Below the pieces are notes generated by a model, which saw nothing but the letters and a program-made list of their open reading frames with translations, was not told where the DNA came from and ran no database searches. The translations under genes were made by a program, and so were the position numbers. This document shows positions 3,266 through 33,347 of a stretch of DNA of 64,000 nt, one piece after another (within the stretch, counting starts at the first letter, position 1; every line of letters begins with the position of its first letter). The stretch comes from Betaproteobacteria bacterium (GTDB taxonomy: Bacteria; Pseudomonadota; Gammaproteobacteria; Burkholderiales; Rhodocyclaceae): assembly GCA_019136545.1 (NCBI GenBank), contig JAGVUA010000049.1, forward strand, positions 1,096 to 65,095. Reading direction: 5' to 3'.

Positions 3266-4167
3266 ACCACTCAGTGCGCGCAGTCGACAGAATCGCACCT
3301 CGTCGCCAGGGCAACTGGGATTGGCGGGCGGCCGGCAACTTCGTGGCGGGCGGCGCGGGCGGCGGTGTGCTGGCCTGCGTCGCCGCGCTGTCCATCGGGC
3401 TCGGATTCGATCCGCGCCTGCTGCTGGCAGTGGGGTTGGCGATGATGGGGTTTGGCCTGACCTGCGTGTGGTTCGAAATTGGCCGGCCATGGCGGGCGAT
3501 GAACGTCTTTCGTCACGTGGGTTCCTCGTGGATGACCCGCGAAGCCTATGTCGCGCTGTTCGCCATGGGAACCGGCCTGCTGGCAATTGGCCTCGGCACA
3601 AGGCCGCTCGTGGCCGCGACCGGCTTGCTCGGCTTGCTGTTCATCTACGCGCAGGCCCGGATACTCGCCGCCAACAAGGGCATCCCTGCCTGGCGCCATG
3701 GCCGCTGCCTGCCAGTAGTCTTGTCGACCGGCTTGGCGGAAGGCGCCGGCCTGGTCGCCTGCGCCGGCGCGTGGGCGGCGTGGTGGCGGTATCCGGCCAT
3801 GCTATTGGTGCCGCTTTGCGCATGGCGGGTGATCGCCTGGCGCCGTTATCTGGCTGCGCTGGCTGCGGATGGGGCGCCGGTGGGCACGCTGACCGCTTTC
3901 CGCCGGATCAATTCCTTGTTCGTCTGGGGCGGCAACCTGGTCCCGGTCGTGCTGGCCGGCGTGGCGGTGCTGGCGGACGCGCCGATCTTGGCGGTCTTGG
4001 CAGGTATGCTGACGGTGGCGGCGGGCTGGCAGATGAAGTACTCGCTGGTTTGTCGCGCGGCGTTCACGCAGGGTTTCGCGCTGCCCAAACAGCCCGTGCG
4101 CGGCAATAGCCGGACGGGACCGGGCGTCAAGCCGGGATGGCAGTGGAACCGTTGGTTAACTGATTGA
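3262..4167 (+). CDS. padD: Polytopic membrane anchor subunit of the Mo-oxidoreductase (DmsC/PadD-like)
   Basis: ATG overlaps the upstream stop (ATGA). 301 aa, dominated by long hydrophobic A/L/G/W-rich segments. Position after the Mo and FeS subunits. Confidence 0.65.
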   Translation: MNHSVRAVDRIAPRRQGNWDWRAAGNFVAGGAGGGVLACVAALSIGLGFDPRLLLAVGLAMMGFGLTCVWFEIGRPWRAMNVFRHVGSSWMTREAYVALFAMGTGLLAIGLGTRPLVAATGLLGLLFIYAQARILAANKGIPAWRHGRCLPVVLSTGLAEGAGLVACAGAWAAWWRYPAMLLVPLCAWRVIAWRRYLAALAADGAPVGTLTAFRRINSLFVWGGNLVPVVLAGVAVLADAPILAVLAGMLTVAAGWQMKYSLVCRAAFTQGFALPKQPVRGNSRTGPGVKPGWQWNRWLTD

Positions 4168-4217
4168 CTCGAAGATAAGACCACGCCAAGCGGCGTGAGT
4201 TGGAGGAGACACGCACG

Positions 4218-4790
4218 ATGTACGAAATCCGTCTGCATGGGCGGGGAGGGCAGGGCGCGGTGATGGCCTCGGGCATTCTGGCCACTGGACTGGTCGCGGC
4301 CGGCAAGTTCGCCGTGGCGATTCCCTCCTTCGGCTTCGAGCGCCGCGGCGCGCCGGTAGTCGCCTACCTGCGCACCGATGACAAAGAAATCCGGCGCATG
4401 ACCAACATCACCGAGCCCGACTGCCTGATCTGCATCGATCCAACCGTGGTGAACTCGGTGAACATCTTCGCCGGCCTGAAGCCCGGCGGCACGCTGGTGC
4501 AGACCAGCGCCAAGTCGCTGCCGGAATTGAACTTGCCGGAAACCGTCGGCACCGTCGGCATTTGCAACGCGGTGAAGATCGCCATGGAGATTTTTCGCCG
4601 CCCGATCACCAATACCCTGATGCTCGGGGCTTTTGCGCGGACCACGGGCGTGGTCGATCTTGAGTTTTTGAAGCAGGCGCTGCGGGATTCGGAGTTCCGC
4701 GATGCCGGTCTCGAACAGAATCTGACCGCCTTGCAACGCGGTTACGATGAAACGGTAGTGCATCGCATCGAAAGGCGGGCTGCGGCATGA
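4218..4790 (+). CDS. padE: 2-oxoacid:acceptor oxidoreductase gamma subunit (PadE-like, phenylglyoxylate oxidoreductase)
   Basis: MYEIRLHGRGGQGAVMASGIL is the typical OFOR gamma N-terminus. GGAGGAG RBS lies 10 nt upstream of ATG 4218. Confidence 0.75.
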   Translation: MYEIRLHGRGGQGAVMASGILATGLVAAGKFAVAIPSFGFERRGAPVVAYLRTDDKEIRRMTNITEPDCLICIDPTVVNSVNIFAGLKPGGTLVQTSAKSLPELNLPETVGTVGICNAVKIAMEIFRRPITNTLMLGAFARTTGVVDLEFLKQALRDSEFRDAGLEQNLTALQRGYDETVVHRIERRAAA

Positions 4791-5089
4791 GTTGCCACAA
4801 GGCTTATCCGATGTTCAATCCGGCCGCGGCCGGCGTGCCGGACGATCTGTGTCCGATCGCCACCGAAATTACGCCCATGCTTCCGGGCGACTGGCGCAGC
4901 CTGCGTCCGGTGGTGGACCGCGACAAATGCGTCAAGTGCGCCATCTGCTGGCTTTACTGTCCCGTGCAGTGCATTGTCGAAAAGCCGGCCTGGTTCGACA
5001 TGAATCTCGCGACTTGCAAAGGCTGCGGCATTTGCGCCAACGAGTGCCCGCAGCGGGCGATCACCATGATCGAGGAGACCGGAACATGA
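4787..5089 (+). CDS. padF: 2-oxoacid:acceptor oxidoreductase delta subunit, 2x[4Fe-4S] ferredoxin (PadF-like)
   Basis: ATGA overlap with padE. Motifs CVKCAICWLYCP and CKGCGICANECP. About 100 aa. Confidence 0.75.
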   Translation: MSCHKAYPMFNPAAAGVPDDLCPIATEITPMLPGDWRSLRPVVDRDKCVKCAICWLYCPVQCIVEKPAWFDMNLATCKGCGICANECPQRAITMIEETGT

Positions 5090-6321
5090 CCGCGGCAACT
5101 CTGGAAAGAGCCGACACCGAGTCCAAGTTCATCGTTTGCGAGGGCAACGAGGCGGCGGCGCTCGCCGTGGCGCTGGCGCGTCCCGACATGGTGTCGGTGT
5201 ATCCGATTACCCCGCAATCGAGCCTCGTCGAGCATGTCGCCAAGCTGGTCGCCGACGGCCGGCTCGATGCCGACATCGTCGATGCCGAGGGCGAGCATTC
5301 GGTGCTCTCGGTGCTGCAGGGCGCGGCGTTGGCGGGCGGCCGCACATACACGGCGACATGCGGGCCTGGCCTGGCCTTCATGTTCGAGCCGTACTTCCGG
5401 TCGCCCGGCATGCGGTTGCCAATCGTCATGACCATCGTCACGCGCGACGGCATTACGCCGCAGTCTGTCTGGGGCGGTCATCAGGATGCCATGACCGTGC
5501 GCGAGGTCGGCTGGGTGCAGATCTACTGCGAGTCGGTGCAGGAGGTGCTCGACACCACCATCATGGCCTTCAAGATCGCCGAGCATCATGATGTCATGTT
5601 GCCGGTGAATATCTGTGTCGACGGCAACTATCTTTCCTACGGTTCCGCGCGCGTGGCGGTGCCGGAACAGGCGGACGTGGATGCCTTCATGGGCGTGAAG
5701 AACGTCAACTGGCATGCCGCGCTCGATCCCGAGCGGCCGATGGGCGTCGATCCGCTCACCGGCGGCTCGGGCGGCAAAGGCCCCTCGATGTTCGTGCGCT
5801 ATCGCAAGAGCCAATGTCAGGGCATGCAGAATGCCCTGCGCGTGATCACCGAGGTGCATGAGGAATATGCCCGCCGCTTCGGTCGCAGCTATGCGCCGTT
5901 GGTCGAGCAATATCGGATGGAAGACGCCGAAATCGCGCTGATGACCATCGGCAGCATGACGGGTGCCGCCAAGGATGCGGTGGACGAGGCGCGTCAGGCT
6001 GGTAGCAAGGTGGGTATCGTCAAGGTCAAGACGTTCAGCCCTTTCCCGCTGGAGGTGCTGGTGGCGGCGCTGGACAAGGTTCAGGCGATCGGCGTCGTCG
6101 ATCGGTCGGTGGCCTTTCGCTGGAACTGCGGGCCGCTGTACCAGGAGACGTTGGGCGCGCTCTATCGGCTCGGCCGCCACGTGCCGTCGACCAGTTTCAT
6201 CGGCGGCCTTGCCGGCGCCGATTTGACGGTGGATCACTTCCTCCGGGTGATCCGAGAGACCGAGGCGCTCCGCCATGGCCGACTTTCGTCGGGGCCGGTC
6301 TGGCTTAACGAAAATGACTGA
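5086..6321 (+). CDS. padG: 2-oxoacid:acceptor oxidoreductase alpha subunit (PadG-like)
   Basis: ATGA overlap with padF. N-terminus ...FIVCEGNEAAALAVALARPDMVSVYPITPQS is typical of POR/OFOR alpha subunits. 411 aa. Confidence 0.8.
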   Translation: MTAATLERADTESKFIVCEGNEAAALAVALARPDMVSVYPITPQSSLVEHVAKLVADGRLDADIVDAEGEHSVLSVLQGAALAGGRTYTATCGPGLAFMFEPYFRSPGMRLPIVMTIVTRDGITPQSVWGGHQDAMTVREVGWVQIYCESVQEVLDTTIMAFKIAEHHDVMLPVNICVDGNYLSYGSARVAVPEQADVDAFMGVKNVNWHAALDPERPMGVDPLTGGSGGKGPSMFVRYRKSQCQGMQNALRVITEVHEEYARRFGRSYAPLVEQYRMEDAEIALMTIGSMTGAAKDAVDEARQAGSKVGIVKVKTFSPFPLEVLVAALDKVQAIGVVDRSVAFRWNCGPLYQETLGALYRLGRHVPSTSFIGGLAGADLTVDHFLRVIRETEALRHGRLSSGPVWLNEND

Positions 6322-6327
6322 GCACGC

Positions 6328-7602
6328 ATGAGCGAGATGACAATGGGAGAAACACGTTACCTGATAGTCGGCAGCAGCCATGCGGCGCTCGAGGCGGCGG
6401 CGGCGATCCGCATGCATGACGAGGAAGGCAGTCTCGCCATCGTGACGCGCGACCGCCATTTGCCCTATTCGCCGACGGTGCTGCCCTATGTCGTTTCCGG
6501 GCGATCGACGCCGGAACAGGTGCTGCTGCGCGATGCCGAGTATTTCTCCGCGCGCAAAATCGACTACCGGCCGGGGCAATCGCTGGTAGCGGTGCGGCCA
6601 GCCGAACATCTCGTGCAGCTGGAAGGGGCCGGGGGCGGCGAGTTGCGCTACGAAAAGCTGCTGCTGGCGACTGGCGCATCGCCGGTCGTGCCGCCCATTC
6701 CGGGTATCGAGAAGGCGAGCTATCACGTCTTGCGCACGCTCGACGATGCGATCGGCCTGAACAAGGCGATCGGCGCGACAAGGCGTGCCGTGGTGCTGGG
6801 CGCCGGGCTGGTGGGCATGCATGCCGCCGAGAATCTCGCCAAGGCCGGCATTGGCGTCACCATCGTCGAAATGGCCGATCAGTTGTGCGCCGGGTATTTC
6901 GATCGCACCGCGGCGAACTTGATCGAAAAGGCATTCACGGACCACGGCGCCACCATACGCACCGGCCGGCGCGTGATCGGGATGATGCCGCATGACGGCG
7001 GTACGACGCTGGCGCTGGACAACGGTGAAACGCTCGATGCCGATCTGCTGCTGGTCGCCACTGGCGTGCGGCCCGAGCTCGGCTACCTGGCGGACAGCGG
7101 CATCGCCACGGATAAAGGCATCCTGGTTGACGACAGCATGCAGACCAGTGCCGCCGACGTCTGGGCCGCGGGCGACTGTGCGCAAGCGCGAAGCTTCTAT
7201 TCGAATGCCAAAGTCATGAATGCTATTTTGCCCGACGCCGCCGAACAGGGGCGCATCGCCGGCATGGCCATGGCGGGCGACCCCGGCCTGAGGAACTATC
7301 CAGGCGGCGTGCCGCTCAACACCTACCATTTCTTCGGCCGCCACGCCATTTCGGTCGGCAGCAGCCGGCAGCCGGAAAATGCGCAGGTGGAAACCCGCTT
7401 CGACGAAAAAAGTGGCCGTTACCTCAGGGCCTGTTTCGTCGACGGCCGTCTGCAGTGCATTCACGGCGTCAACGAATTCTTCGATGGCGGCGTGATGGCG
7501 CAGCTGATTCTGCGCCGCGTCGATCTCGATCCCGTGCGCGAGCGTTTCGTGGCGCAGCCGATGGCGGTCGGCCGGGAACTGATGTCGCAACTCTGGCGCT
7601 AG
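6328..7602 (+). CDS. padH: FAD/NAD(P)-dependent pyridine-nucleotide-disulfide-type oxidoreductase subunit (PadH-like)
   Basis: Dinucleotide folds YLIVGSSHAALEAA and AVVLGAGLVGMHAAE. Inserted between the OFOR alpha and beta genes, as in the five-subunit phenylglyoxylate:NAD+ oxidoreductase. Confidence 0.7.
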   Translation: MSEMTMGETRYLIVGSSHAALEAAAAIRMHDEEGSLAIVTRDRHLPYSPTVLPYVVSGRSTPEQVLLRDAEYFSARKIDYRPGQSLVAVRPAEHLVQLEGAGGGELRYEKLLLATGASPVVPPIPGIEKASYHVLRTLDDAIGLNKAIGATRRAVVLGAGLVGMHAAENLAKAGIGVTIVEMADQLCAGYFDRTAANLIEKAFTDHGATIRTGRRVIGMMPHDGGTTLALDNGETLDADLLLVATGVRPELGYLADSGIATDKGILVDDSMQTSAADVWAAGDCAQARSFYSNAKVMNAILPDAAEQGRIAGMAMAGDPGLRNYPGGVPLNTYHFFGRHAISVGSSRQPENAQVETRFDEKSGRYLRACFVDGRLQCIHGVNEFFDGGVMAQLILRRVDLDPVRERFVAQPMAVGRELMSQLWR

Positions 7603-7612
7603 GACAAAGCTC

Positions 7613-9004
7613 ATGGGACGTGCCTACAACACCATTGCCTTCGATGCCGCCAAATGCGACGGCTGCGGCGACTGCATGCGCGCCTGCGCGCGCGCCAAGA
7701 CCGACAGCGAGGATATCGCGCGGTCGCGTATTCAGATTCTTGGCGGATCGTCGGGTTTCGAACTGGCCTTATGCCGCCAATGCGGCGATCCCCGCTGCGT
7801 GGCGGTGTGTCCGGCCGGCGCGCTCGGCAAGGATGAACAGTCCGGCGTCATCGGCTGGGATGCCAGCAAGTGCGTGGACTGTCTGCTGTGCACCCTCGGT
7901 TGCGCCTACGCCGGCATTGCGCTCGACGAAGCCACGGGCCGCGTCGCCAAATGTGATACTTGCGAAGGTGCGCCCGCTTGCGTGCCGGCTTGCCCGCACG
8001 GCGCGCTCAAGCATCACACCACGGCGCGCATTTACAACGAAGTCGGCGACTGGGAGGATCTGTTCGCCCCCGGGCTGGCCGGCTGCCAGGGATGCAATAC
8101 CGAATTGCTGATGCGTCATACCCTGCGCCGGGTGGGTCCGGAAACCGTGTTGGCGACGCCGCCCGGTTGTGTGCCCGGCATGGGCTCGGTGGGTTACAAC
8201 GGCATGGCCGGCACCAAGGTGCCGGTCTTCCATCCGCTGCTCACCAACACGGCCGCCATGCTGGCCGGAGTGAAGCGCCAGTTCAACCGCGCCGGCCGCA
8301 AGGTGACGGCGCTGGCCATCGCCGGCGACGGCGGTGCGTCCGATGCGGGCTTCCAGTCATTGTCGGGCGCGGCCGAGCGCGGCGAACAGATTCTGTTCAT
8401 GGTCGTCGATAACGAGGGATACATGAACACCGGCATGCAGCGGTCGAGCGCCACCCCCTTCGGGGCGTGGACGTCGACGACGCCGGTCGGTCGCGAGTCC
8501 AAGGGCAAGACGCAGGATGCCAAGAATCTGCCCCTGCTCATGGTGAATCATCGTTGCGCCTACGTCGCGACCGCGTCGACGGCCTACATGGAAGACCTGT
8601 ACGAGAAGCTCGACCGCGCCATCGTCGCCGCCGAGACGGGCTTCGCCTATTTGCATGTTTACTCGCCCTGTACCACGGGTTGGCGATTCCCCACCGAAAA
8701 GAACATGGAGGTCGCGCGCAAGGCGGTCGAGACCAATTTCGTCATGTTGTGGGAATACACGCCAGCGCAAGGGCTGCATTTTTCCCAGTCGGTGGATCAT
8801 CCGTTGCCGGTCACCGAATACCTCAAGGTCATGGGACGTTTCCGTCACCTGACCGAGGAGCAAGTCCAGCATATCCAGGCTAAGGTCGAAGAGAACCGTG
8901 CCTTTGTTCAACAAATCTCCCAACAGAGCTATGCACCACGCGAGTACGTGAGACTCGCGGGGCTAGGAGGAGATCATGACAAAGGTAACGCACCCCGCAG
9001 GTAA
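7613..9004 (+). CDS. padI: 2-oxoacid:acceptor oxidoreductase beta (TPP-binding) subunit with N-terminal polyferredoxin domain (PadI-like)
   Basis: N-terminal Cys clusters (CDGCGDCMRAC, CRQCGDPRCVAVCP, CVDCLLCTLGC, CDTCEGAPACVPACP). TPP motif IAGDGGASD...VVDNEGYMNTG. Confidence 0.75.
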   Translation: MGRAYNTIAFDAAKCDGCGDCMRACARAKTDSEDIARSRIQILGGSSGFELALCRQCGDPRCVAVCPAGALGKDEQSGVIGWDASKCVDCLLCTLGCAYAGIALDEATGRVAKCDTCEGAPACVPACPHGALKHHTTARIYNEVGDWEDLFAPGLAGCQGCNTELLMRHTLRRVGPETVLATPPGCVPGMGSVGYNGMAGTKVPVFHPLLTNTAAMLAGVKRQFNRAGRKVTALAIAGDGGASDAGFQSLSGAAERGEQILFMVVDNEGYMNTGMQRSSATPFGAWTSTTPVGRESKGKTQDAKNLPLLMVNHRCAYVATASTAYMEDLYEKLDRAIVAAETGFAYLHVYSPCTTGWRFPTEKNMEVARKAVETNFVMLWEYTPAQGLHFSQSVDHPLPVTEYLKVMGRFRHLTEEQVQHIQAKVEENRAFVQQISQQSYAPREYVRLAGLGGDHDKGNAPRR

Positions 9005-10295
9005 ACGAGAGCAGATAGAAACCGCCAGTCGCGACGAGTTGCATGCGCTGCAGTTGCAGCGTATGCAATGGTCCCTGCGGCACGCTTACGAGAACGTGCC
9101 GCACTATCGCGCGAAATTTGATCAGGCAGGCGTCCGCCCGGAAGACTTGCGGACGCTGTCCGACTTGGGCAAGTTTCCGTTTACCACCAAGGCCGACCTT
9201 CGGGAAACCTATCCGTACGGACTGTTCGCGGTTCCCATGCGCGATGTGATCCGGGTTCATGCCTCGTCGGGTACCACGGGCCGTCCCACGGTAGTGGGCT
9301 ATACGCGCAACGACATCGACACGTGGGGCAAGGTGATGGCGCGATCCATGCGCGCCGCCGGCGTGACGGCCGACGATATCGTGCTTAACTCCTATGGCTA
9401 CGGACTGTTCACGGGGGGATTGGGCGCCCACTATGGCGCCGAGACGCTGGGCGCGGCCGTTATTCCGATGTCCGGCGGCCAGACGGAAAAACAGGTTCAG
9501 CTGATTCGCGAATTCAGCCCCACCGTCGTAATGTGCACACCCTCGTATTCCCTGACCATCGCCGACGAACTGACGCGCCAGGGCGTTGGCAAGGGCGAGA
9601 CGTCATTGCGTGTCGGCATCTTCGGCGCCGAACCATGGACCAATGAAATGCGGCGCGAGATCGAGGAGCGGCTCGGCATCGACGCGGTCGACGTTTATGG
9701 GCTGTCCGAAGTCATGGGTCCGGGCGTCGCCTGCGAATACGTCGAGTGCAAGGACGGGCCCCACGTTTGGGAAGATCACTTCTACCCGGAGGTCATCGAT
9801 CCCGATACCGGCGAGGTGCTGCCCGACGGCGCGGACGGCGAGCTCGTTTTCACTTCGTTGACCAAGGAAGCCTTGCCCATCATTCGCTATCGCACGCGCG
9901 ACCTGACGCGGCTCCTGCCGGGCACCGGCGGCGTCATGCGCCGTATGGTCAAGATCACCGGCCGCTCTGACGACATGCTCATCATCCGCGGCGTCAACGT
10001 CTTTCCGACGCAGATCGAGGAAGTGCTTCTCAAGAACCCCAACCTCTGCGCCCAGTATCAGATTCAGGTGTCTCGCGAGGAGCACCTGGACAAAATAGAC
10101 GTGTACGTGGAGGTCAAGCCGGAACTGTCGGACAAGCTCACCACGTCCGGGCGCGAGGCCATCGGTCGCGATGCCGCCCACCATATCAAGTCGCTGGTCG
10201 GCGTCTCGGCGCAGGTGCATGTGGTGGAGACCGACAAGATCGAGCGCACGCTGGTGGGCAAGGCGAAAAGGGTCATCGACCGTCGGCCGAAATAA
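8976..10295 (+). CDS. paaK: Phenylacetate-CoA ligase (PaaK family; PadJ position)
   Basis: AGGAGGA RBS before ATG 8976, which overlaps padI by 29 nt. PaaK-type N-terminus ...LQLQRMQWSLRHAYENVPHYRAKFD. AMP motif HASSGTTGRPTVVGYT. 439 aa. Confidence 0.85.
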   Translation: MTKVTHPAGKREQIETASRDELHALQLQRMQWSLRHAYENVPHYRAKFDQAGVRPEDLRTLSDLGKFPFTTKADLRETYPYGLFAVPMRDVIRVHASSGTTGRPTVVGYTRNDIDTWGKVMARSMRAAGVTADDIVLNSYGYGLFTGGLGAHYGAETLGAAVIPMSGGQTEKQVQLIREFSPTVVMCTPSYSLTIADELTRQGVGKGETSLRVGIFGAEPWTNEMRREIEERLGIDAVDVYGLSEVMGPGVACEYVECKDGPHVWEDHFYPEVIDPDTGEVLPDGADGELVFTSLTKEALPIIRYRTRDLTRLLPGTGGVMRRMVKITGRSDDMLIIRGVNVFPTQIEEVLLKNPNLCAQYQIQVSREEHLDKIDVYVEVKPELSDKLTTSGREAIGRDAAHHIKSLVGVSAQVHVVETDKIERTLVGKAKRVIDRRPK

Positions 10296-14916: not shown

Positions 14917-15849
14917 ATGGAAAACCGGTCGCTCAGCCGCTGGATCGTCGATATGCTGGCCGAACGACCGGTTCGGGCCAACTCCCTGATCATCACCATC
15001 TTTGGCGACATGATCGCCCCCCATGGGGGGACGGTTTGGCTTGGCAGCCTGATCGGCCTGGTCGCGCCTTTCGGCATCAACGCCCGCTTGGTGCGAACCA
15101 GCGTATTCCGCCTGTCCCGCGAGAAGTGGTTGGTCTCGCATCAAATCGGCCGACGTAGCTATTACAGCCTGACGGCGATGGGCCATCGCCGTTTCGACCA
15201 CGCTTATCGGCGCATCTATAACGACCCGCGCACGCACTGGGAAGGCGATTGGCAACTTGTCATGGTGCCGAACGAAGCCTTGACGGCCGCGCAGCGGGAC
15301 GCCTTGCGCACGGAATTGCTTTGGGAAGGCTTCGGTTCGATCGCGCCGGGCGTCATGGCGCATCCTTCCGCGAGCGAGGACTCGCTGCTCGACATCCTGG
15401 AAAGCACCGGCGCCCACGACAAGGTCGTCGTCCTGCAGGCACATACGCTTGGCGCTCTGGTAGGGCGGCCTTTGAAGGCGCTCGTCGAGGGTTGTTGGAA
15501 CCTCAAGCGCGTCGCCGACGAATATCGCCGCTTCCTGGAGTACTTCCGGCCGGTGGTCCGCATGCTGGGCAATGCCGCGCGCCAGGATCCCGAACAATGC
15601 TTCATGGTTCGCGTGCTGTTGATGCACGAATTCCGGCGCGTCCAACTGCGCGATCCCCAACTGCCCCGTCAATTGCTGCCGACCGACTGGCCGGGCGACA
15701 AGGCGCGCGCGCTCTGTGCCGATATCTACCGGCTATGCCGCGAGACGACGGAGAGGCATCTGATGACCACCCTGGAAACGCCGGACGGTCCGCTGCCCAA
15801 GGCCAATGCCCTGTTTCAGGAGCGCTTCAGCGGCGTCGGCAGCGATTAG
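14917..15849 (+). CDS. paaX: PaaX-family phenylacetate catabolon repressor
   Basis: SLIITIFGD...GGTVWLGSLI...RTSVFRLSREKWL...GRRSYYSLT matches the PaaX winged-helix N-terminal domain as I recall it from E. coli. The start is uncertain (ATG 14917 or 14869, TTG 14845). Confidence 0.75.
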   Translation: MENRSLSRWIVDMLAERPVRANSLIITIFGDMIAPHGGTVWLGSLIGLVAPFGINARLVRTSVFRLSREKWLVSHQIGRRSYYSLTAMGHRRFDHAYRRIYNDPRTHWEGDWQLVMVPNEALTAAQRDALRTELLWEGFGSIAPGVMAHPSASEDSLLDILESTGAHDKVVVLQAHTLGALVGRPLKALVEGCWNLKRVADEYRRFLEYFRPVVRMLGNAARQDPEQCFMVRVLLMHEFRRVQLRDPQLPRQLLPTDWPGDKARALCADIYRLCRETTERHLMTTLETPDGPLPKANALFQERFSGVGSD

Positions 15850-15870
15850 CTGGACGATGGGACACGGCTT

Positions 15871-16809
15871 TCAGTGCCGGTCGACGACGCCCAGTATGCT
15901 GAAGTCAATCTCGCCGGTCGGCGTCATAACGGCGCTGGTGAAGCTGGTGCGGTCGGGGCGCAGCGAAGCCTCGAAGGTCCGACCTTGATCGCGGCTGGTC
16001 AGGGTGACTCCGGACAGCCCGAGCAGGCGCACGGTGCCATCCTGCGCTTGCCAAGCAGTGGTTAGCGACTGCTGGGTGCCACTGGGCACCTCTTGCCACG
16101 AACGGCCCCGGTCCTGACTGCGAAAGATGTGGCCGCGCAGCCCGGCGATCAACAGGCTGCCGTCGGACAAGGCCAGGCCCGTCCAGAAAGAACCTTTATT
16201 GCTGGTCGGTATCGCTTGCCATGTTTTGCCGGCATCTTCGGACCGCAAGACAAAGCCTCCTTCGGCCGCGATCAGCAGCAAGCCGTTGCGTCCGTCCACA
16301 ATGCTTTGCAGGTGTATTTCCCCGGCATCGCCTTCGACCAGCCGTCGCTCCTGCCAGGTATTGCCCCCGTCCGTGGTTTCCAGGGCCAGGCCGAATTGAC
16401 CGACCGCCAAGCCATGCTCGGCATTCTCGAACCATATCGAGAGCAGCACGCGTTCCTTGCCGGGCTCTTCGCGCTGTAGACGCCAAGTTTCGCCGCCATC
16501 GCTGGTGGCCAGGATCGTGCCGTCGTGGCCGGCCGCCCATCCGCGGCGAGCATCCAGGAAGAAAACGCTGGTAAGCGGAGCGCGGGTTGGCACCTGACTT
16601 TGTCGAAAGCTTTGGCCGTCGTCGGAAAGGATGATGGCGCCGTAATCGCCTACCGCGACGATGCGCGCGCCTGCCATGGTTGCCCCGAGAATCGGCGCCC
16701 GTGCCGGGTTGGCCAGATGTGGCGCCTGGCGCGGCGCCGCCTCGGCGGCAGGTGGCGATGCGGCGGCCATCGCGAGCGAGGACAGCATCAGGACCAGGAA
16801 TCGCTTCAC
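15871..16809 (-). CDS. BNR/Ycf48-like beta-propeller protein with signal peptide
   Basis: Repeated SxDxGxTW-type motifs (DGGETW, DGGNTW, DAGKTW, DRGRSW, DQGRTF). GTG 16809 lies 8 nt after AGGGAG. Signal peptide VKRFLVLMLSSLAMAAA. Confidence 0.7.
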   Translation of the reverse strand: MKRFLVLMLSSLAMAAASPPAAEAAPRQAPHLANPARAPILGATMAGARIVAVGDYGAIILSDDGQSFRQSQVPTRAPLTSVFFLDARRGWAAGHDGTILATSDGGETWRLQREEPGKERVLLSIWFENAEHGLAVGQFGLALETTDGGNTWQERRLVEGDAGEIHLQSIVDGRNGLLLIAAEGGFVLRSEDAGKTWQAIPTSNKGSFWTGLALSDGSLLIAGLRGHIFRSQDRGRSWQEVPSGTQQSLTTAWQAQDGTVRLLGLSGVTLTSRDQGRTFEASLRPDRTSFTSAVMTPTGEIDFSILGVVDRH

Positions 16810-16824
16810 ACCCAATACTCCCTA

Positions 16825-19200
16825 CTAATGGCCAATGACCGAAGCGCGTACCGGCCCGCGGCGCGGAAACACGGCTTCCAGAACCGCGGCGAAGGCGGGC
16901 AGCACCGTGATGGCGGTCAGCATGTTCACGATGAACATGAACGTCAGCAAGATCCCCATGTCGGCCTGGAACTTCAGATCCGAAAGCGCCCAGGTGGCAA
17001 CGCCGACCGAAAGGGTAATGGCTGTAAAGACGGTGGCGATGCCGACTTCGCGCAAGGTTGCGCGCAGTGCGAGCAGCATCGGCTCCTGCCGGGAGAGGTG
17101 CACCAGCAGGCGGTTGTAAATGTAAAACGCATAATCTACGCCAATGCCGGTGGCCAGCACCATGACCGGTAGCGTGGCGACCGTCAGGCCGATGTCGAGC
17201 GTCTTCATGAACCAGTAGCCCAGGAACGTGGCCAGCGTCAGAGGCAGGCAGCACGCCAGCATCGCCCGCCAATCGCGATAGGCGATGAGCACCAGCGCCA
17301 TGATCGCGAGGTATACGTAGATGATCATGGGCAATTCCCGCGATTCCACTTCCTCGTTGGTCGCGGCCAGCACGCCGATATTGCCCGAGGCGAGCCGCAC
17401 CTTCACGCCGAGCGGCGTGGGGTCATACGCCTGCCGGAAGCTCTTGACGGCCTGGATGGCCGCTCCGATGGTGGTGGCCCGGTGATCGGCCAGATAGATG
17501 TTGGCGGCCATCATGGTGCAGGCGCGGTTGAACAAGCCGCCGGCCTCGGGGAGATAGCCCACCGCCACTTGCAGCGCCTTGCTGTCGCGCGGGAGCGCCG
17601 TCAACTTCGGATTGCCTTCGTTTAGACCGGCATTGGCAAACTTGGCCAGGGCAGACAGCGACGATACCGACAGGACGCCCGGCACCTGGGCCATGTGCAA
17701 GGTGAACTGATCGATGTAGTCGAGAATCGGGAAGCTGTTGCAGGAGTCGTTGGGCGTTTCGAAGACGACCGTCAGGACATCCATGCCCAGGTCGAAGCGC
17801 TTGACGATGTTCTCCGTGTCGATGTTGTAGCGGGCGTCGGGCCTGAGTTCGGGCGCGCCCGGCTGCAAGGCGCCGATATGGCGGCCGTGGCTTTGCCAGA
17901 TGGCCACCGCCAGCAGCACCGCCGCCACGGCCAGTACCGTGCCGGCATGGCGGAGATCGGCGATCACACCCAATCGCTCGATGATTCTGCCGCGCTGAGC
18001 CTGCAGGGCCTCGAGCCGCAGCGCGTAGTCCTGGGAGAACTTGAAATAGGAGGCTACCAGCGGCAACATGATGAGATTGGTGATGATCTTGTAGCCCACG
18101 CCGATGGAGGCGGTGATGCCCAGTTCGCGAATCATCGGTATCGGGATCATTACCAGCGTGATGAAGCCGACGAAAGCGGTCACCAGGGCCAGCGAACCCG
18201 GCACGAACAGGCTGGAGAAACTTTCGCGACTCGCTTCGACGGAGCTGGCGCCGCGCGCCACAGCCTTGGTGATGGCATTGATTTGCTGCACGCCATGGGA
18301 GACGCCGATGGCGAATACCAGAAAAGGTACCAGGATGGCGAGGGGATCGAGACCATAACCGAGCAAAGTCAGCGTGCCGAATTGCCAGACCACCGAGGTC
18401 ATCGAGCATAGCAGGGGTAGCAGCGTGAGCAGGATCGAGCGGCAGTACCAATAGACGGCTAGCGCCGTCAGCAGGGTGGCCAACGCGAAGAACTGCGCTA
18501 CGCCGCGGGCGCCGTCGGCGATATCGCCGATCTGCTTGGCGAAGCCGATGATTTCGATGGCATGATCGGGCGATTCGAGCTTGCCGCGCAGGTCCTTCTC
18601 GAGCCGGGTGGCAAGATCGAGATAATCGAGCTTGCGGTGGGTGTTGGGGTCCTCCTCCAGCAGGTCGGCGACGATCATCGCCGCCGTACCGTCGTTGGCG
18701 ACCAGGCTTCCGATGTAACCGCCGCGGATGGCGCGATCCTGAATCCGGGCAATATTGGCTTCGTCGAGCGCATCGGGCGTGATGTTGCCACCGATGACGT
18801 CTTCGGCTTCGAAGCCCTCCTCGGTCAACTCATAGACGCGCGTGTTGGGCGTCCACAGAGACTGTACGGAGCGCCGATCGATGCCGGGCAGGAACAGCAC
18901 GGCTTCGGTGACTTCGTGCAGCTTTTTAAGCGATGGCGCGGTCCAGATGCTGCCTTGGCGGGCGCGCACCACGACCATGACGCGGTTCGAACCGAACAGC
19001 TGCGTACGGTATTGGAAAAACGTATCGGTGTATTCGTGCCCGATGGGCAACTGCTTGTCGAAGCCCGCCGACATGTGCAGACGGGTCGCCAGCACGCCCA
19101 TGCCTATCGTGAAGACGGCGAGGATGAGCAGGGTGGGCAGACGAAACCGAAAGAAAAAAGATTCCAGGCGCTTGACCGCGCCAACTATGCCGCCGCTCAT
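16825..19200 (-). CDS. RND-superfamily (MMPL/HpnN-like) inner-membrane transporter
   Basis: About 790 aa. Two repeats of a large soluble loop plus a hydrophobic bundle. Partner genes DUF1302/DUF1329/BNR. ATG 19200 (TTG 19209 also possible). Confidence 0.75.
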   Translation of the reverse strand: MSGGIVGAVKRLESFFFRFRLPTLLILAVFTIGMGVLATRLHMSAGFDKQLPIGHEYTDTFFQYRTQLFGSNRVMVVVRARQGSIWTAPSLKKLHEVTEAVLFLPGIDRRSVQSLWTPNTRVYELTEEGFEAEDVIGGNITPDALDEANIARIQDRAIRGGYIGSLVANDGTAAMIVADLLEEDPNTHRKLDYLDLATRLEKDLRGKLESPDHAIEIIGFAKQIGDIADGARGVAQFFALATLLTALAVYWYCRSILLTLLPLLCSMTSVVWQFGTLTLLGYGLDPLAILVPFLVFAIGVSHGVQQINAITKAVARGASSVEASRESFSSLFVPGSLALVTAFVGFITLVMIPIPMIRELGITASIGVGYKIITNLIMLPLVASYFKFSQDYALRLEALQAQRGRIIERLGVIADLRHAGTVLAVAAVLLAVAIWQSHGRHIGALQPGAPELRPDARYNIDTENIVKRFDLGMDVLTVVFETPNDSCNSFPILDYIDQFTLHMAQVPGVLSVSSLSALAKFANAGLNEGNPKLTALPRDSKALQVAVGYLPEAGGLFNRACTMMAANIYLADHRATTIGAAIQAVKSFRQAYDPTPLGVKVRLASGNIGVLAATNEEVESRELPMIIYVYLAIMALVLIAYRDWRAMLACCLPLTLATFLGYWFMKTLDIGLTVATLPVMVLATGIGVDYAFYIYNRLLVHLSRQEPMLLALRATLREVGIATVFTAITLSVGVATWALSDLKFQADMGILLTFMFIVNMLTAITVLPAFAAVLEAVFPRRGPVRASVIGH

Positions 19201-19287
19201 GTCAGACAATCGTTATCGTGAGCGGCGGGGCGCGCTTGGCACGCCCCGCCGCAATGTGAAAAGTCGGATGACAACCGCGATCCAGGA

Positions 19288-21132
19288 TTAGAAGGTATAG
19301 GAAACCATCGCGCTCAGGATGTCGCGGTCGCGCATCATGTTCATGTTGCCGCCACCGAAGAACGTGGTGTAGCCGATGCCGACCTTCCATTGATTGTGAT
19401 AGTCGAAGTTGAGGTTGAGGGCAACCGCCTTGCGACCATCGACGAAAGGCAGCGCGTTGGGGCTCGTGCCATGGACATCGTGATAGTAGTCGATCATCGG
19501 CGTCATGGTCCATCCGGACCCGAAGATGTTGGCGTAGGTCAGGCCCACTTCCGCGACATAGCCCCACGAGGTCTTGGTGGGGAGTTCGTAGTTGTTGAGC
19601 AGATAGGGCACACCGCCGGAACGATCAAGGTTCGGGTAGTGCGTCACGGCCAGTTCACCCAGGAAGTAGCCTTCGGCTGCGCCAAGCGGTGCGGTCCACT
19701 CCGGCGAGAACAGCCGGAAGCCCGTCAAGTGCGCTTGCCACTTCTTCTCGGTGACATAGCCGTCGACCATGGTTTCGGCGCCATTGGCCGCCACCGCTGC
19801 TGCGGCAAGGCTGTAGCGTCCCCCGAACGGCACGGTCGGATCGATGGCAACGCTGTCTCGCGGACGGTATGACAACTCGGCGCCAACCGCCCAGTCGCCC
19901 GCCTTGGTATTGAGCGAAACGCCGAAAAGGCTGCGGTTCTCGCCATATTGCTCGACGGCCGCTGAAATCACCTGGTTGGCCGGATCGGCAATACAGCCGG
20001 CGCTCCCGCCAATGCAGTAGGACTTGAAGCCGATGAATGGGATCTTGTCGTGATAACGGATGAAGTAAGCGGCGTACTCCGTATCGCCACCCGTGGGCTT
20101 GTAACGCAGGTTCAAGCCGAACTGACCGCTGTTCTTGGGCATGTCGCGCTGGACGGGAACGACCGTTCCGGCACCGATCAGATACTCCATGGTACGACCG
20201 CGCGTTGGATCGAAGTCGCCCAGCGTTCCTGCCGGAGCCGGAAAGCCGGCGCTGGTGAAGATGGGCGAGAAAGCGGCCAGGTTGTTGGGCACCGAGGTCG
20301 TGACGAAAGCGCCACGCCTGCCGCCCCTGCCCAGAAAGTCGGCGGAAGACCAATAGGTTCCCGCCGGATCGAAGATGAACCTGTTCCAGTGAAACTGATA
20401 ATAGGCCTCGGTCGAGAAACCTCCGCCGAGCCCGGTGGACAGCGAGATCATGGGCGCCGGGACGAAAACTTCCTTCAACTGGGCGCCGGGAATATGGATT
20501 TTGCGCAGATCAAGGGCGTTGATCGAATTGACGCCGCCGATGATGAAAATGTCCTCACCCCAACTGATGACCTGATTGCCGAACTTCAGTTTGGCGTTCT
20601 GCCCGCCCAGCGAAAACTCCTTCGACAGCCACAAGTCGAGAAGCGAGACGTTCTTCTCCATCGCGTCTTTGGCGTCGGGGTGCAAGGGCGTGCGCCTCGT
20701 GTCGTCGGCCAGGAAATCCGACGACCAGGTAAAACGGCCGAGCGCCGACCAATTGCCCTGTTCCTTCAGGAATAGCTCGTGCGTGCCCTTGAGCACGGCG
20801 GAAAAAACCCTGCCCTTCTTGTAGTTGAGGTCGCCGTCGTCGGTTTGGGCGTAGTTGAAGTCGGGGACCGAGGCGATGCCGCCGCCGGGGCCGTTGACGC
20901 GCTCGCCCAACGTGCCGGTGGTGGCGACGTTGCCTCCCGAGTCGTTGCTGATGATCGATCGGTCGGGCGACTGCAGGCGCATTTGCACGCCGAAGGAAAT
21001 GGTCGAGTCGAAGGTGCCGGTAATGCCGTTCTCCATCTCGAACTTGAAGGCTTGCGCCGGCAGGCTGGCACCAAGGCCGATCGCGGCGATCATCGTTGCC
21101 AGCGGCGACCAGCGGGTCGTAATGTTCTTCAT
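19288..21132 (-). CDS. DUF1302-like outer-membrane beta-barrel protein
   Basis: GGGGAGA RBS before ATG 21132. Signal peptide ending ...SLPAQA/FKFE. Alternating aromatic/Gly-rich strands. C-terminal ...MVSYTF, an OMP signature. Confidence 0.7.
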   Translation of the reverse strand: MKNITTRWSPLATMIAAIGLGASLPAQAFKFEMENGITGTFDSTISFGVQMRLQSPDRSIISNDSGGNVATTGTLGERVNGPGGGIASVPDFNYAQTDDGDLNYKKGRVFSAVLKGTHELFLKEQGNWSALGRFTWSSDFLADDTRRTPLHPDAKDAMEKNVSLLDLWLSKEFSLGGQNAKLKFGNQVISWGEDIFIIGGVNSINALDLRKIHIPGAQLKEVFVPAPMISLSTGLGGGFSTEAYYQFHWNRFIFDPAGTYWSSADFLGRGGRRGAFVTTSVPNNLAAFSPIFTSAGFPAPAGTLGDFDPTRGRTMEYLIGAGTVVPVQRDMPKNSGQFGLNLRYKPTGGDTEYAAYFIRYHDKIPFIGFKSYCIGGSAGCIADPANQVISAAVEQYGENRSLFGVSLNTKAGDWAVGAELSYRPRDSVAIDPTVPFGGRYSLAAAAVAANGAETMVDGYVTEKKWQAHLTGFRLFSPEWTAPLGAAEGYFLGELAVTHYPNLDRSGGVPYLLNNYELPTKTSWGYVAEVGLTYANIFGSGWTMTPMIDYYHDVHGTSPNALPFVDGRKAVALNLNFDYHNQWKVGIGYTTFFGGGNMNMMRDRDILSAMVSYTF

Positions 21133-21167
21133 CGTCTGTCTCCCCAATCAGTCAGATGCAATACGGA

Positions 21168-22523
21168 TCAACGTTCGCCGGCGCGCCGAAGTTCGTCGGG
21201 CTCGAAGCGCTTCGGGTCGATACGGCCCTCTGCACCCGCCAGCCAGTCCGTCGACTTCGACTCCTGTGTGGCGTTTTCCGCCATATAGCGGTTGACGTTG
21301 AGATCCCAGGACATGAACTCCTGGCTGACGCAGGCGCCCAGTTCTACGGCGGGATAGATAGAGGCTTCCATCACCCGCCAGAGCTTGCCCTGGGCATCGT
21401 AAAGATCCGCCGCCATGATCATCCAGGTGTCTTCATCGATGTAGAAGGCGCGCTTGGCGAACATGTTGCGCATGCCTTGCTTGATCGTGGCTTCGACCTT
21501 CCAGACGCGGTGCAGCTCGTAGCGCATCAAGTCCCGATTTGGATAGAGGCCGCCATAAATCTCCGACAACTTGCGCTTGGCGACGAACTTGAAGCTGTTG
21601 TAGGGAATGTACATCTCCTGCTTGCCCACCAGCTTCCAGTTGTAGCGGTCGAGCATGCCCGCAAACATCGGGTATTGATCGGCGGTCTCCAGGTTTTCGT
21701 ATCCCGGGATCGGATTGTCATACTCGAAGGCAGGCAGCCGCCTGACGCGACGTTGCCCGGGAAAGTACATCCAGGCGTCGTTGCCCTTGTCCATGAAGTA
21801 GTGCGCCATGATGACCTCGCCCGTGCGCGACGCAGGTGCCGTCGCCACGTTTAGGATCTTCATCTGCACGTCCCCGACATCGTCGATCGACTTGGCCTTG
21901 GCCGATGCAAATGGCGTGACCACCCACTGATCCTGGGCAAGCCCATAGAAACTGCCATCGGGATTGATGAAGTTGGTCTGGTAAAACTCTATGCGCCCTT
22001 CGCCCTGCCAGCGGAGGCGGTGATTCCAGATGGCCTCGGCGCCGTTTTTCGGAATCGGGAAGGGGAAGCCGCCGCCGACCGCCTGCGCCAGGTTGTCCTT
22101 GCCGTCGGTGGTGAGCTTGGCCACCGTGGCATTGAGGCGGGACTGGGTATACACCGAGTCCGGATAGCCGCAACTGCGCTGGGTCGGATAGACATCCATC
22201 CGATAGCCCTTGCGAGTCTTGATCAACTCAATGGCGCCTTCGGAAAGTTTGTCCTTGTATTTATCGACGTTGCTGGCATCGATGGAGAACATCGGCTTGT
22301 CGGCTGCGAAGGGATCGACGCGGGCATCGCCGAGCTTATGCTTGCCTTTCGGCAACCCACCTTTCCATTCCGGAATGCTGCCATCCTTGTTGCCGGCACG
22401 TTCGGCGCCGACGGGCGTCAGGTCCTTGCCCAAGCGCGCGACCTCCGGTTCGCCGACTGCCGCCAGCCCGTGCCCAGCGGCGGCCACGAGGCCGATGGTC
22501 AGCAGATATCGTGTCATGCTCAT
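21168..22523 (-). CDS. DUF1329-like (LolA-fold) periplasmic/lipid-carrier-type protein
   Basis: Signal peptide MSMTRYLLTIGLVAAAGHGLAA. Hallmark RLGKDLTPVGAERAGNKDGSIPEWKGG near the N-terminus. Confidence 0.7.
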   Translation of the reverse strand: MSMTRYLLTIGLVAAAGHGLAAVGEPEVARLGKDLTPVGAERAGNKDGSIPEWKGGLPKGKHKLGDARVDPFAADKPMFSIDASNVDKYKDKLSEGAIELIKTRKGYRMDVYPTQRSCGYPDSVYTQSRLNATVAKLTTDGKDNLAQAVGGGFPFPIPKNGAEAIWNHRLRWQGEGRIEFYQTNFINPDGSFYGLAQDQWVVTPFASAKAKSIDDVGDVQMKILNVATAPASRTGEVIMAHYFMDKGNDAWMYFPGQRRVRRLPAFEYDNPIPGYENLETADQYPMFAGMLDRYNWKLVGKQEMYIPYNSFKFVAKRKLSEIYGGLYPNRDLMRYELHRVWKVEATIKQGMRNMFAKRAFYIDEDTWMIMAADLYDAQGKLWRVMEASIYPAVELGACVSQEFMSWDLNVNRYMAENATQESKSTDWLAGAEGRIDPKRFEPDELRRAGER

Positions 22524-22574
22524 GTCTTGTCCCCTCGATCTGGTTGTGTTCTCTGCCTGATGCGTGTTGTGCTG

Positions 22575-26610: not shown

Positions 26611-27612
26611 ATGAGCATGGCGTTCGACTCTGACCAAGTTGCCAGCAGCTGTCGCTTCAAGACAGTGACTACGCTCGACTCGGACGAGCATGCCGCTGCG
26701 CTGCAGGCATGGGATCAGACCTACAACCAGTTATCACCCGGCGCTTTCAAGGGTGCGCTGCAGCAAATCTGGATGGGTAATATTCACGTCTTCCGGGAAA
26801 CAACCAATCGGGCGGTTTCGCAAAGCGGCTTGCCGACCCGCGACTGCTTTGTCTTCGGCGTGCCGCTCGAGATGAGCGACACGGCCTTGTTCGGCAACCA
26901 GGTCGTGGTTCCGGATTCGTTTTTCATGTTTCGGGCCACCGACGGCTTCAGTTTGCGTACCCCCGAGTTCTTCGATGTCATGGGTATCGCCATTCCCGAG
27001 TCGGATATGGCCGCCGCGCTCGGTCGCCGACTGGAGGGAGAGATGCGAATTCTCCTGTCGGGTGCGCCGATGGTGTTCATGCCGCCCCGAGCAGCCTTGG
27101 CTGAGTTCCAGCGCTGCTTGATCTCGCTGTTCGATCCTGGTTGCCTGTAGCCGAACCAGCTTGCCGATGCCGCGTATTGGCGTAGCTTGAGTGATGGCGT
27201 GGTGGGACATCTCGTCAACCTGCTTCAGACCGCCCTGCGGGCGCCGCCGCCGACGCCTTCGTTTCCCGGGCGTTGCCGGGTCGTCGAGGAAGCCGTGGCG
27301 TTCGCCCTCTCGCAGGGCGCCGAGCCCGTGACCGTGAGCGAGTTGTGCGCCAGAACCCGGGTCAGCCGGAGAATGCTCAATTATTGTTTTCAGGATGTAT
27401 TGAATACCAACCCGGTGCACTATCTCAAGGCAATCCGGCTGAACGGCGTGCGTCGGGAACTCAGGCAGGTTGATCCGGCTCCGGGAGTGATACGGGATAT
27501 CGCGGGACGATGGGGCTTCTGGCACTTCTCCCGTTTTGCCAGCGAGTATCGCCTGCTTTTTGGCGAATTGCCGTCCGATACCTTGTGCAAGGGATACGTC
27601 AGCCCGACTTGA
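26611..27612 (+). pseudogene. FeaR/EutR-like AraC-family regulator interrupted by a single in-frame TAG (27148-27150)
   Basis: Track ORFs 26611-27150 (sensor domain, ...AWDQTYNQLSPGAFKGALQQIWMGNIHVFRE) and 27187-27612 (HTH_AraC, ...VSELCARTRVSRRMLNYCF...FWHFSRFASEYRLLFGE) are in the same frame (both = 1 mod 3). Only one stop separates them. Confidence 0.65.
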
Positions 27613-29719: not shown

Positions 29720-29744
29720 AAAGTCAGCCGTGGCGGCGCGCCGC
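29719..29744 (+). repeat. GAAAGTCAGCC-hairpin element, copy 2
   Basis: GAAAGTCAGCCGTGGCGGCGCGCCGC. Its first base is the G of the EF-G paralogue's TAG stop. Confidence 0.8.
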
Positions 29745-29771
29745 TTGCGAGCCGCCGCGAGTCTTTCTACA

Positions 29772-33346: not shown

Positions 33347-33347
33347 G

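Follow-up and report, generated by a model that had tools for sequence, protein, structure and literature searches.

Here we describe a four-gene envelope module in a stretch of 64,000 nucleotides (nt) from a Betaproteobacteria bacterium (assembly GCA_019136545.1, contig JAGVUA010000049.1, positions 1,096 to 65,095 of the forward strand). This whole stretch is called the window, and coordinates given for it count from its first letter. The module occupies 15871-22523 as four co-oriented open reading frames (ORFs) on the minus strand, in the order DUF1329-DUF1302-RND-BNR, where RND stands for resistance-nodulation-cell division and BNR for a propeller protein. The quartet almost certainly belongs to the published AmeABCD type of tetrapartite RND systems, and in this organism and most of its relatives it travels with periplasmic amine dehydrogenases. 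The best overall explanation, to which we give a probability of about one half (0.5), is that the tetrapartite system is a dedicated accessory of periplasmic amine oxidation and operates as a relay. A functional coupling of some kind between the quartet and periplasmic amine oxidation is, judging from the gene neighbourhoods, highly probable.

The four genes lie exactly where the sequence-only reading of this DNA had placed them, and they are as tightly spaced as it had described, with intergenic gaps of 35, 87 and 9 nt on a single strand:

21168..22523, minus strand: DUF1329 gene, 451 amino acids (aa), secreted soluble periplasmic carrier, predicted to be LolA-like
19288..21147, minus strand: DUF1302 gene, 619-aa ORF with a probable start at 21132 that gives 614 aa, predicted outer-membrane beta-barrel
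16825..19209, minus strand: RND gene of the small MMPL/HAE3 type, 794-aa ORF with a probable start at 19200 that gives 791 aa
15871..16815, minus strand: BNR propeller gene, 314 aa, Ycf48-like, secreted

Linkage to periplasmic amine dehydrogenases

Directly upstream of the quartet and on the same strand are the genes of a tryptophan tryptophylquinone (TTQ) amine dehydrogenase with subunits of the aromatic amine dehydrogenase (AADH) type, and ahead of these lies a divergent regulator gene:

25183-26334, minus strand: TTQ heavy subunit (Pfam, NCBIfam)
24638-25183, minus strand: MauE (Pfam MauE, 95 bits)
24001-24624, minus strand: MauD (TIGR02661, 208 bits, above cutoff)
23480-24004, minus strand: TTQ light subunit (Pfam, NCBIfam)
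23003-23476, minus strand: secreted c-type cytochrome, 157 aa (Pfam Cytochrome_CBB3/Cytochrom_C; weak NCBIfam cytochrome c matches)
22575-23006, minus strand: secreted c-type cytochrome, 143 aa, with the motif CSGCH (Pfam Cytochrome_CBB3/Cytochrom_C; weak NCBIfam cytochrome c matches)
22524..22574, minus strand: 51-nt junction, from the stop codon of the 143-aa CSGCH cytochrome c to the ATG of the DUF1329 gene
26611..27612, plus strand: divergent AraC-family regulator gene with an in-frame TAG at 27148-27150 (Q180*)

A search of the PDB gave the heavy subunit 213 bits against the Alcaligenes faecalis AADH and 112 bits against methylamine dehydrogenases; the corresponding scores of the light subunit were 187 bits and 141-176 bits. 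The MauE and MauD genes sit between the two subunit genes, as they do in the aau operon, and the two small c-type cytochromes are the probable electron acceptors of the dehydrogenase. The TTQ operon that had been read from the sequence is as described.

Along the ten-gene string formed by the dehydrogenase genes and the quartet, successive genes are separated by -1, 13, -4, 3, -4, 51, 35, 87 and 9 nt. The 51-nt junction carries a Shine-Dalgarno sequence, GAGGGGA, ahead of the DUF1329 ATG, and the ribosome-binding part alone is conserved in 92%-identical relatives. The earlier claim that this gap holds no hairpin or terminator stands: a terminator scan of the junction gave no terminator-like site, and the junction has no stable fold (z = +1.24). 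Terminator-like matches in coding regions were dismissed, with 7 found against 11.6 expected by chance. A scan for sigma-70 promoters returned 0 sites in 13.5 kb against ~3 expected by chance, and such a scan is uninformative in a GC-rich organism. Judging from this layout, the quartet is likely to be transcribed together with the TTQ dehydrogenase genes in the window. The stop codon in the AraC-family gene results from a C to T change at 27148, before the helix-turn-helix domain; the gene is intact, at 333 aa, in the 99.8%-identical metagenome contigs L001-L006, and the stop may mean that this strain has truly lost the presumed activator, or else the base was misread in sequencing.

The strongest evidence for coupling comes from a survey of related loci. 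One genome per GTDB species was scanned with an alignment of DUF1329 orthologues, which yielded 80 loci with 61-92% DUF1329 identity, and their neighbouring genes were scored with a tblastn panel. The loci come from Rhodocyclaceae, Dechloromonas, Azonexus, Sulfuritalea, Sterolibacterium, Limnohabitans, Burkholderiaceae, Casimicrobiaceae, Limnobacter, Zeimonas and Rudaea. A periplasmic amine dehydrogenase is encoded on the same strand in 62 of the 80. This is a TTQ operon directly upstream, on the same strand and across gaps of 17-175 nt, in 43 loci, and a quinohemoprotein amine dehydrogenase operon (qhpA, D, C, B), either upstream or downstream, in 19. The remaining 18 loci have neither type and mostly lie on contigs that end within the locus; where full flanks are available, the amine dehydrogenase is present in 38 of 44. 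The link to hydrophobic amine and aldehyde catabolism that had been proposed for the module is upheld by these counts. Literature searches found no article linking DUF1329, DUF1302 or RND proteins with amine dehydrogenases, and the linkage is apparently new. Looking for work on phenylethylamine in Aromatoleum likewise yielded nothing of use.

Other features of the neighbourhood are similarly constant. The quartet is complete in 54 of the 55 loci with enough sequence, and an aldehyde dehydrogenase gene adjoins it in 39 of 51, often followed by a gene for a FadD-like CoA ligase. Most related loci have a single divergent AraC gene ahead of whichever gene block leads. The neighbour state, which can be TTQ, quinohemoprotein or none, switches at least 8 times on the DUF1329 tree; therefore the constant partner of the quartet is the reaction and not one enzyme family or the biogenesis of its cofactor. 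A role in quinoprotein maturation was rejected, as the quartet tracks both TTQ and cysteine tryptophylquinone (CTQ)/quinohemoprotein enzymes and is also found with GMC and pyrroloquinoline quinone (PQQ) dehydrogenases. One locus (L010) has a PQQ dehydrogenase besides its TTQ operon.

The Limnohabitans loci differ in their partner. The locus of Limnohabitans planktonicus II-D5 (L030, 8810-20310), like L028, L029, L031 and L039, has a close quartet with ~80% DUF1329 identity and no amine dehydrogenase. Upstream lies a TetR regulator gene; downstream, an aldehyde dehydrogenase is encoded along with a protein of 203 aa and a GMC oxidoreductase, and this oxidoreductase may be another periplasm-facing dehydrogenase that feeds the same module. 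Several relatives carry MauG-like di-haem peroxidases (the loci compared for aldehyde dehydrogenase and MauG were L007, L010, L014-L018, L091 and L092).

Five plasmid homologues with 40-53% identity served as controls, and none has an amine dehydrogenase; in four the quartet is there in unchanged order, and the fifth is a DUF1302-DUF1329 pair only. Sampling from the dehydrogenase side (seven loci) found the quartet in three, namely Denitromonas ohlonensis, a Rubrivivax-like metagenome-assembled genome (MAG) and Zoogloea. Three others (Alcaligenes faecalis, Achromobacter and a Castellaniella-like contig) have no quartet and instead encode a COG4313/Phenol_MetA_deg channel and an aldehyde dehydrogenase, both immediately upstream of the heavy-subunit gene (L093, 6746-7618; L094, 6716-7597; L102, 6751-7623). 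The seventh, Cupriavidus basilensis, has neither quartet nor COG4313 channel. No COG4313 gene was found in any quartet locus examined. COG4313 channels have been linked to the uptake of hydrophobic molecules, among them the long-chain amine sphingosine (PMC4493636), and the either/or pattern points to a requirement for outer-membrane passage of hydrophobic amines in these pathways.

The four proteins and the AmeABCD family

Pfam profile matches support the family assignments that had been made for all four proteins, and together with the signal peptides and ~12 transmembrane (TM) segments they fit the layout proposed from the sequence alone, in which a carrier, a barrel, a pump and a propeller would span the whole envelope.

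The DUF1329 protein matches Pfam DUF1329 (PF07044) with 416 bits and LolA_like with 50 bits, and has a Sec-type signal peptide without a lipobox Cys. Its AlphaFold2 model has a mean predicted local distance difference test (pLDDT) score of 80 and a predicted template modelling (pTM) score of 0.82, with the N-terminal 55 residues disordered. The best Foldseek matches of this model in the PDB are LolA3 (9tp6), 3bk5 and 4z48, the last named 'DUF1329 family protein', with TM-scores of 0.66-0.80 normalised to the target; on the model, the fold is LolA-like. The hallmark motif that had been noted in this protein is present at residues 30-56 (RLGKDLTPVGAERAGNKDGSIPEWKGG), within the predicted disordered segment. 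It is kept even in 40%-identical homologues, including a Pseudomonas aeruginosa plasmid copy, and falls outside the Pfam model, whose match begins at residue 80. Its conservation and predicted disorder would suit a docking peptide.

The DUF1302 protein has a Sec-type signal peptide and no lipobox Cys, and matches Pfam DUF1302 (PF06980) over its full length, with 495 bits against a cutoff of 23 bits. It ends in YTF, as had been read, and the last residue is F in 71 of 72 relatives. The family is predicted to form an 18-strand barrel that docks DUF1329 (PMC13499233; PMC10866462). A sequence search of the PDB gave no relative for the DUF1302 protein, nor for the RND protein.

The RND protein matches the Pfam MMPL profile (48 bits, above cutoff), ACR_tran and the Patched sterol-sensing-domain profile; the ACR_tran alignment is limited to residues 598-777, one TM bundle. 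Its nearest NCBIfam models are HAE3, MMPL and HpnN, and it falls far under the cutoffs of all of them, with 125 bits against the TIGR00921 HAE3 cutoff of 352 and with 41 and 18 bits against the HpnN equivalog cutoffs of 752 and 1100. Hydropathy gives ~12 hydrophobic segments, which together with the MMPL match agrees with the earlier description of a 12-TM RND pump with MMPL-like halves; two periplasmic loops are predicted. The GVDY motif of TM10 (D692/Y693) and the corresponding S304-H305 of TM4 are both invariant in 65 orthologues. The two halves are therefore asymmetric at the presumed proton-relay position, with the MMPL-typical Asp-Tyr in TM10 and Ser-His in TM4; MmpL3 has Asp-Tyr in TM4.

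The propeller protein has a Sec-type signal peptide and no lipobox Cys, matches Pfam PSII_BNR with 91 bits, and finds Ycf48 (2xbg) in the PDB with E = 5e-22, in agreement with the periplasmic COG4447/Ycf48-like propeller of the Ame set. An unannotated 353-aa gene at the propeller position in some relatives also encodes the propeller, at 43% identity.

The sequence-only reading had rated the quartet as a candidate for an undescribed system. This did not hold, as a cassette of the same kind has been published as AmeABCD of Castellaniella defragrans, which consists of the same four families encoded by co-expressed genes (PMC6394551). We are very confident of this family identity. The likeness extends to the four protein families and their predicted locations (an outer-membrane barrel, two periplasmic proteins and, tentatively, a 12-TM HAE3-like RND protein), compared by families and layout and not by the Ame sequences, and to the contiguous, co-oriented genes within a catabolic island for a hydrophobic substrate. 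The gene order differs: it is DUF1329-DUF1302-RND-BNR in the window, in all 80 relatives and in four plasmid homologues, and ameA (DUF1302), ameB (DUF1329), ameC (BNR), ameD (RND) in the published set, where the order is a descriptive and not a functional feature. The partner pathway differs too, being periplasmic amine oxidation here and cytoplasmic terpene or fatty-ester catabolism in the known systems. A further difference is an extra TerB-domain gene (~160 aa, no signal peptide), which is present in 33 of 55 related loci and absent from the window; it lies between the RND and propeller genes in L010 (15754-16239) and L009 (15688-16185), and after the propeller gene in L091 (17581-18063). 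The kind of system is already known; the quartet differs in its gene order and in the conserved coupling to periplasmic amine dehydrogenases, the latter apparently unreported.

Mutants of AmeABCD and its homologues have phenotypes. In C. defragrans, a transposon insertion in ameB weakened growth on several monoterpenes, and deletion of all four ame genes led to poor growth on non-functionalised monoterpenes, to limonene sensitivity even with acetate, and to greater accumulation of Nile Red (PMC6394551). The four families are cofit in randomly barcoded transposon sequencing (RB-TnSeq) of Shewanella, Kangiella and Pseudomonas (bioRxiv 10.1101/072470), and P. putida depends on its homologues (PP_0765/0766 with PP_2018/2019) for growth on Tween 20 and on butyl stearate (bioRxiv 10.1101/2020.07.04.188060). 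Homologue mutants thus show tolerance defects as well as growth defects on hydrophobic substrates (PMC6394551; bioRxiv 10.1101/2020.07.04.188060; PMC13101534, citing Delftia). AlphaFold-Multimer predicts DUF1302-DUF1329 and DUF1329-propeller-RND complexes (PMC10866462; PMC13499233), and the literature places family members in phenanthrene, p-cresol, steroid, toluene/phenol and putative benzene clusters. A hydrolase or esterase role for DUF1302 and DUF1329 (bioRxiv 10.1101/2020.07.04.188060) was rejected, given that one has the fold of a beta-barrel and the other that of a LolA-like carrier, and that neither matches a catalytic family; the authors of that idea later moved to a transport model (PMC10866462). 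The earlier view that substrate and mechanism are not settled remains correct.

Other envelope systems resemble the quartet in part. HpnN and the MmpL proteins (HAE3, HAE2) share with its RND protein a length of ~790 residues, two periplasmic loops and the GxDY-type proton-relay motif of TM10, but the window protein scores far below the cutoffs (HAE3 125 against 352; HpnN 18-41 against 750-1100 bits), and its Ser-His in TM4 is unlike MmpL3. HpnN, moreover, works without co-transcribed periplasmic or outer-membrane partners (PMC6394551). The COG4313 channel of the A. faecalis-type aau operon fills the accessory-envelope slot of an AADH operon and adjoins the same kind of aldehyde dehydrogenase, yet it is an unrelated, single 12-strand passive channel that has no periplasmic carrier and no energised inner-membrane partner. 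With Lol (LolA/LolB), Mla and NPC2/NPC1 the quartet shares the logic of a soluble, beta-barrel-like carrier with a hydrophobic cavity that takes cargo across the gap separating an energised membrane protein from a second membrane. It differs in having no ABC transporter and in its DUF1329 protein, which is roughly double LolA in size and has an additional N-terminal domain as well as the conserved disordered motif, and the cargo of the quartet is presumably a small hydrophobic metabolite, in contrast to the lipoproteins and phospholipids of the Lol and Mla relays. The HAE1 systems AcrAB-TolC and TtgGHI are likewise envelope-spanning RND systems linked to toxic hydrophobic substrates, whereas the ten operon genes here include no HlyD adaptor and no OEP/TolC channel, and the RND protein has 794 aa as against ~1050 aa.

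Proposed relay and alternative explanations

We infer that the cargo is the pathway's hydrophobic amine, its aldehyde or both, because the constant partner is a periplasmic reaction. In the relay that we propose, the quartet and the dehydrogenase genes would most likely be transcribed from a promoter under the divergent AraC regulator. The outer membrane would contain the DUF1302 barrel and the inner membrane an MMPL/HAE3-like RND protein driven by protons, with the propeller docked to it, and DUF1329 would be the soluble carrier. The DUF1302-DUF1329 complex would let in a primary amine that is hydrophobic or arylalkyl in kind, and this amine would be held on DUF1329 in the periplasm, while the RND-propeller pair, working in the canonical RND direction, would draw the amphiphile from the inner membrane onto DUF1329. 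The carrier-bound periplasmic pool could then feed the dehydrogenase and keep both the amphiphile and the aldehyde off the membranes. The aldehyde would enter the cell to be oxidised, in most relatives by the adjacent aldehyde dehydrogenase and in this genome by one encoded elsewhere, and here the resulting acid would pass into the adjoining pad pathway, which PaaX controls. In this lineage the substrate is probably of the 2-phenylethylamine type and the acid product phenylacetate, because the place that aldehyde dehydrogenase and ligase genes usually have is occupied by paaX and the pad genes; the FadD-like ligases of the relatives suggest other amines as substrates there. The tolerance phenotype of the ame mutants would fit the relay, as would the either/or pattern with COG4313 and the growth defects that other homologues show on substrates of low solubility or without toxicity. 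As a complete model, with its periplasm-centred design and its direction of transport, it is tentative.

Several points weigh against this proposal. Phenylethylamine, being small and water-soluble, may need no carrier. Internal promoters may lie within the upstream coding sequence, and with the AraC gene truncated the operon may be silent in this strain. Neither an aldehyde dehydrogenase gene nor a mauG gene is present anywhere in the 64-kb window. The 80 loci are phylogenetically related and mostly betaproteobacterial, such that their counts are not independent events, although the switches of enzyme type and gene order mitigate this kinship. The either/or pattern, in turn, is based on three COG4313 operons.

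The most serious competitor makes the system a protective efflux valve, comparable to the solvent-efflux pumps on other catabolic islands, in which the RND-propeller pair captures toxic amphiphilic amine, or the reactive aldehyde produced in the periplasm, and passes it to DUF1329 and out via DUF1302. Characterised bacterial RND transporters do move cargo outward, HpnN being an example, and the limonene sensitivity (even with acetate) and the greater Nile Red accumulation of the Castellaniella ameABCD deletion speak for such a valve (PMC6394551). The invariant Asp-Tyr pair of TM10 also fits a proton antiporter. However, the quartet lies within the catabolic operon, between the dehydrogenase and the aldehyde dehydrogenase, and shares the AraC regulator with no repressor of its own; in AADH operons the quartet and the COG4313 uptake channel exclude each other; a carbon source would be lost if the aldehyde were expelled; and homologues are needed on phenanthrene (taken to be poorly soluble) and on fatty esters, for which no toxicity is reported. 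We consider efflux possible but unlikely. An energised import or capture, in which the RND-propeller pair acts via DUF1329 to drive or gate amine uptake through DUF1302 and delivers the amine to the periplasmic enzyme, the aldehyde perhaps passing inward, appears improbable. If true, it would be the first bacterial RND system to serve nutrient acquisition instead of export, and the widespread families DUF1302 and DUF1329, also present in Pseudomonas aeruginosa, would gain a function.

A related idea is an inward hand-off of the aldehyde (or the amine) from DUF1329 to the RND-propeller pair and the inner membrane, which would shield the periplasm and feed the cytoplasmic aldehyde dehydrogenase. 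It would draw on the analogy with NPC1, a eukaryotic RND relative that works inward with the soluble carrier NPC2, on the match of the RND protein to the Patched sterol-sensing-domain profile, and on the most constant neighbours of the quartet, which make periplasmic aldehydes (TTQ, quinohemoprotein, PQQ and GMC enzymes) and include a leaderless aldehyde dehydrogenase. Small aldehydes cross membranes unaided, though, and we know of no bacterial RND importer; the outer-membrane barrel would be left without a role, and the lineage of the window has lost its aldehyde dehydrogenase neighbour, so that we give this hand-off only a slim chance. Slimmer still are the prospects of envelope-lipid or vesicle export, whereby an exported envelope component would alter outer-membrane permeability and the pathway substrate would not be touched. 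Price et al. proposed the export of a cell-wall component from pleiotropic phenotypes (bioRxiv 10.1101/072470), DUF1302 and DUF1329 have been found in Delftia nanopods, and lipids are moved by HpnN and the MMPLs, which of the characterised RND proteins are the closest relatives; but this leaves unexplained both the distinct paralogues in many catabolic operons and the tracking of amine dehydrogenases through at least 8 exchanges of enzyme type. Finally, the quartet could be a passenger of a mobile catabolic island, with a role unrelated to the dehydrogenase genes beside it. Some close relatives (Sterolibacterium L008/L042, L044) have no dehydrogenase nearby, and the pad junction is restricted to the shallow lineage of the window. 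Against this, the linkage recurs in 62 of 80 species-level loci, on the same strand and with short gaps, and it holds across several families, for both gene orders and for two dehydrogenase types that are unrelated, which makes a mere passenger very improbable indeed.

An accessory of periplasmic amine oxidation, as preferred here, would matter beyond this locus. The four-protein set is very widespread in Proteobacteria and has real mutant phenotypes, and the present clade offers a tractable handle on it in that its constant partner works in the periplasm and turns primary amines into aldehydes, a defined reaction that is easy to assay; therefore whole-cell oxidation rates, tolerance and carrier binding are directly measurable. 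Cultured isolates with the module include Dechloromonas sp. ZS-1 and CZR5 and Denitromonas ohlonensis. For annotation, many 'methylamine dehydrogenase' operons of wastewater and freshwater Betaproteobacteria would be arylalkyl- or alkyl-amine modules with a built-in envelope system.

Surroundings of the quartet in the window

On the side away from the dehydrogenase genes, the quartet converges on the phenylacetate genes:

14917..15849, plus strand: paaX repressor gene, 310 aa (TIGR02277 PaaX, 327 bits, above cutoff), convergent with the quartet
54..10295, plus strand: anaerobic phenylacetate route, comprising a padBCD-like molybdoenzyme, padEFGHI phenylglyoxylate dehydrogenase and padJ phenylacetate-CoA ligase (8976-10295)

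The NCBIfam equivalogs PadE, PadG, PadH, PadI and PaaK are all above their cutoffs, and a LIV-type ABC transporter is encoded beyond paaX, before the pad genes. The flanking gene sets are those that had been named, with the TTQ operon upstream and paaX, the ABC transporter, padJ, padEFGHI and padBCD downstream. The stop codons of paaX and the BNR gene are 21 nt apart, and this convergent space is covered by a GC-rich stem at 15830-15900, with about -26 to -31 kcal/mol for each of the two strands; it could be a bidirectional terminator without a U-run.

The window DNA recurs at ~99.8% identity in several metagenome contigs, and the nearest genome is a Rhodocyclaceae MAG labelled AalW, with 92% DUF1329 identity. 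A paaX gene beside the quartet was seen only in the window, in its near-identical copies L001-L006 and in the 92% relatives L011, L012 and L036, in which paaX and the pad cluster occupy the usual aldehyde dehydrogenase/ligase slot. The proposed wiring into phenylacetate catabolism is accordingly present at this locus and confined to a shallow lineage (the window, L011, L012 and L036). Of the two linkages that had been suggested for a check across genomes, the one to amine dehydrogenase genes was borne out by the counts, and a general association with pad/paa genes was not.

The remaining gene sets of the window are unrelated to the quartet. At 27668-36521 a copper/silver efflux set comes after the gene of an EF-G paralogue of 683 aa, an arrangement shared by the near-identical metagenome contigs; the set consists of CusF, an OEP channel and a 1057-aa HAE1-type RND protein, and its Cus/HAE1 pump lies at 30168-36521. 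At 40304-43705 on the plus strand is an IcmF-like fusion protein of 1133 aa that combines a B12-dependent acyl-CoA mutase with a MeaB GTPase domain, adjoining an AraC regulator and a hybrid sensor kinase. The window also encodes DinB and an ABC-2 exporter. In the region 53632-61961 a second acyl-CoA ligase, of 655 aa, is encoded together with another LIV-type ABC transporter and with a PaaK-like ligase (60888-61961; 30% identical to PadJ), which suggests a further module for aromatic-acid uptake and activation.

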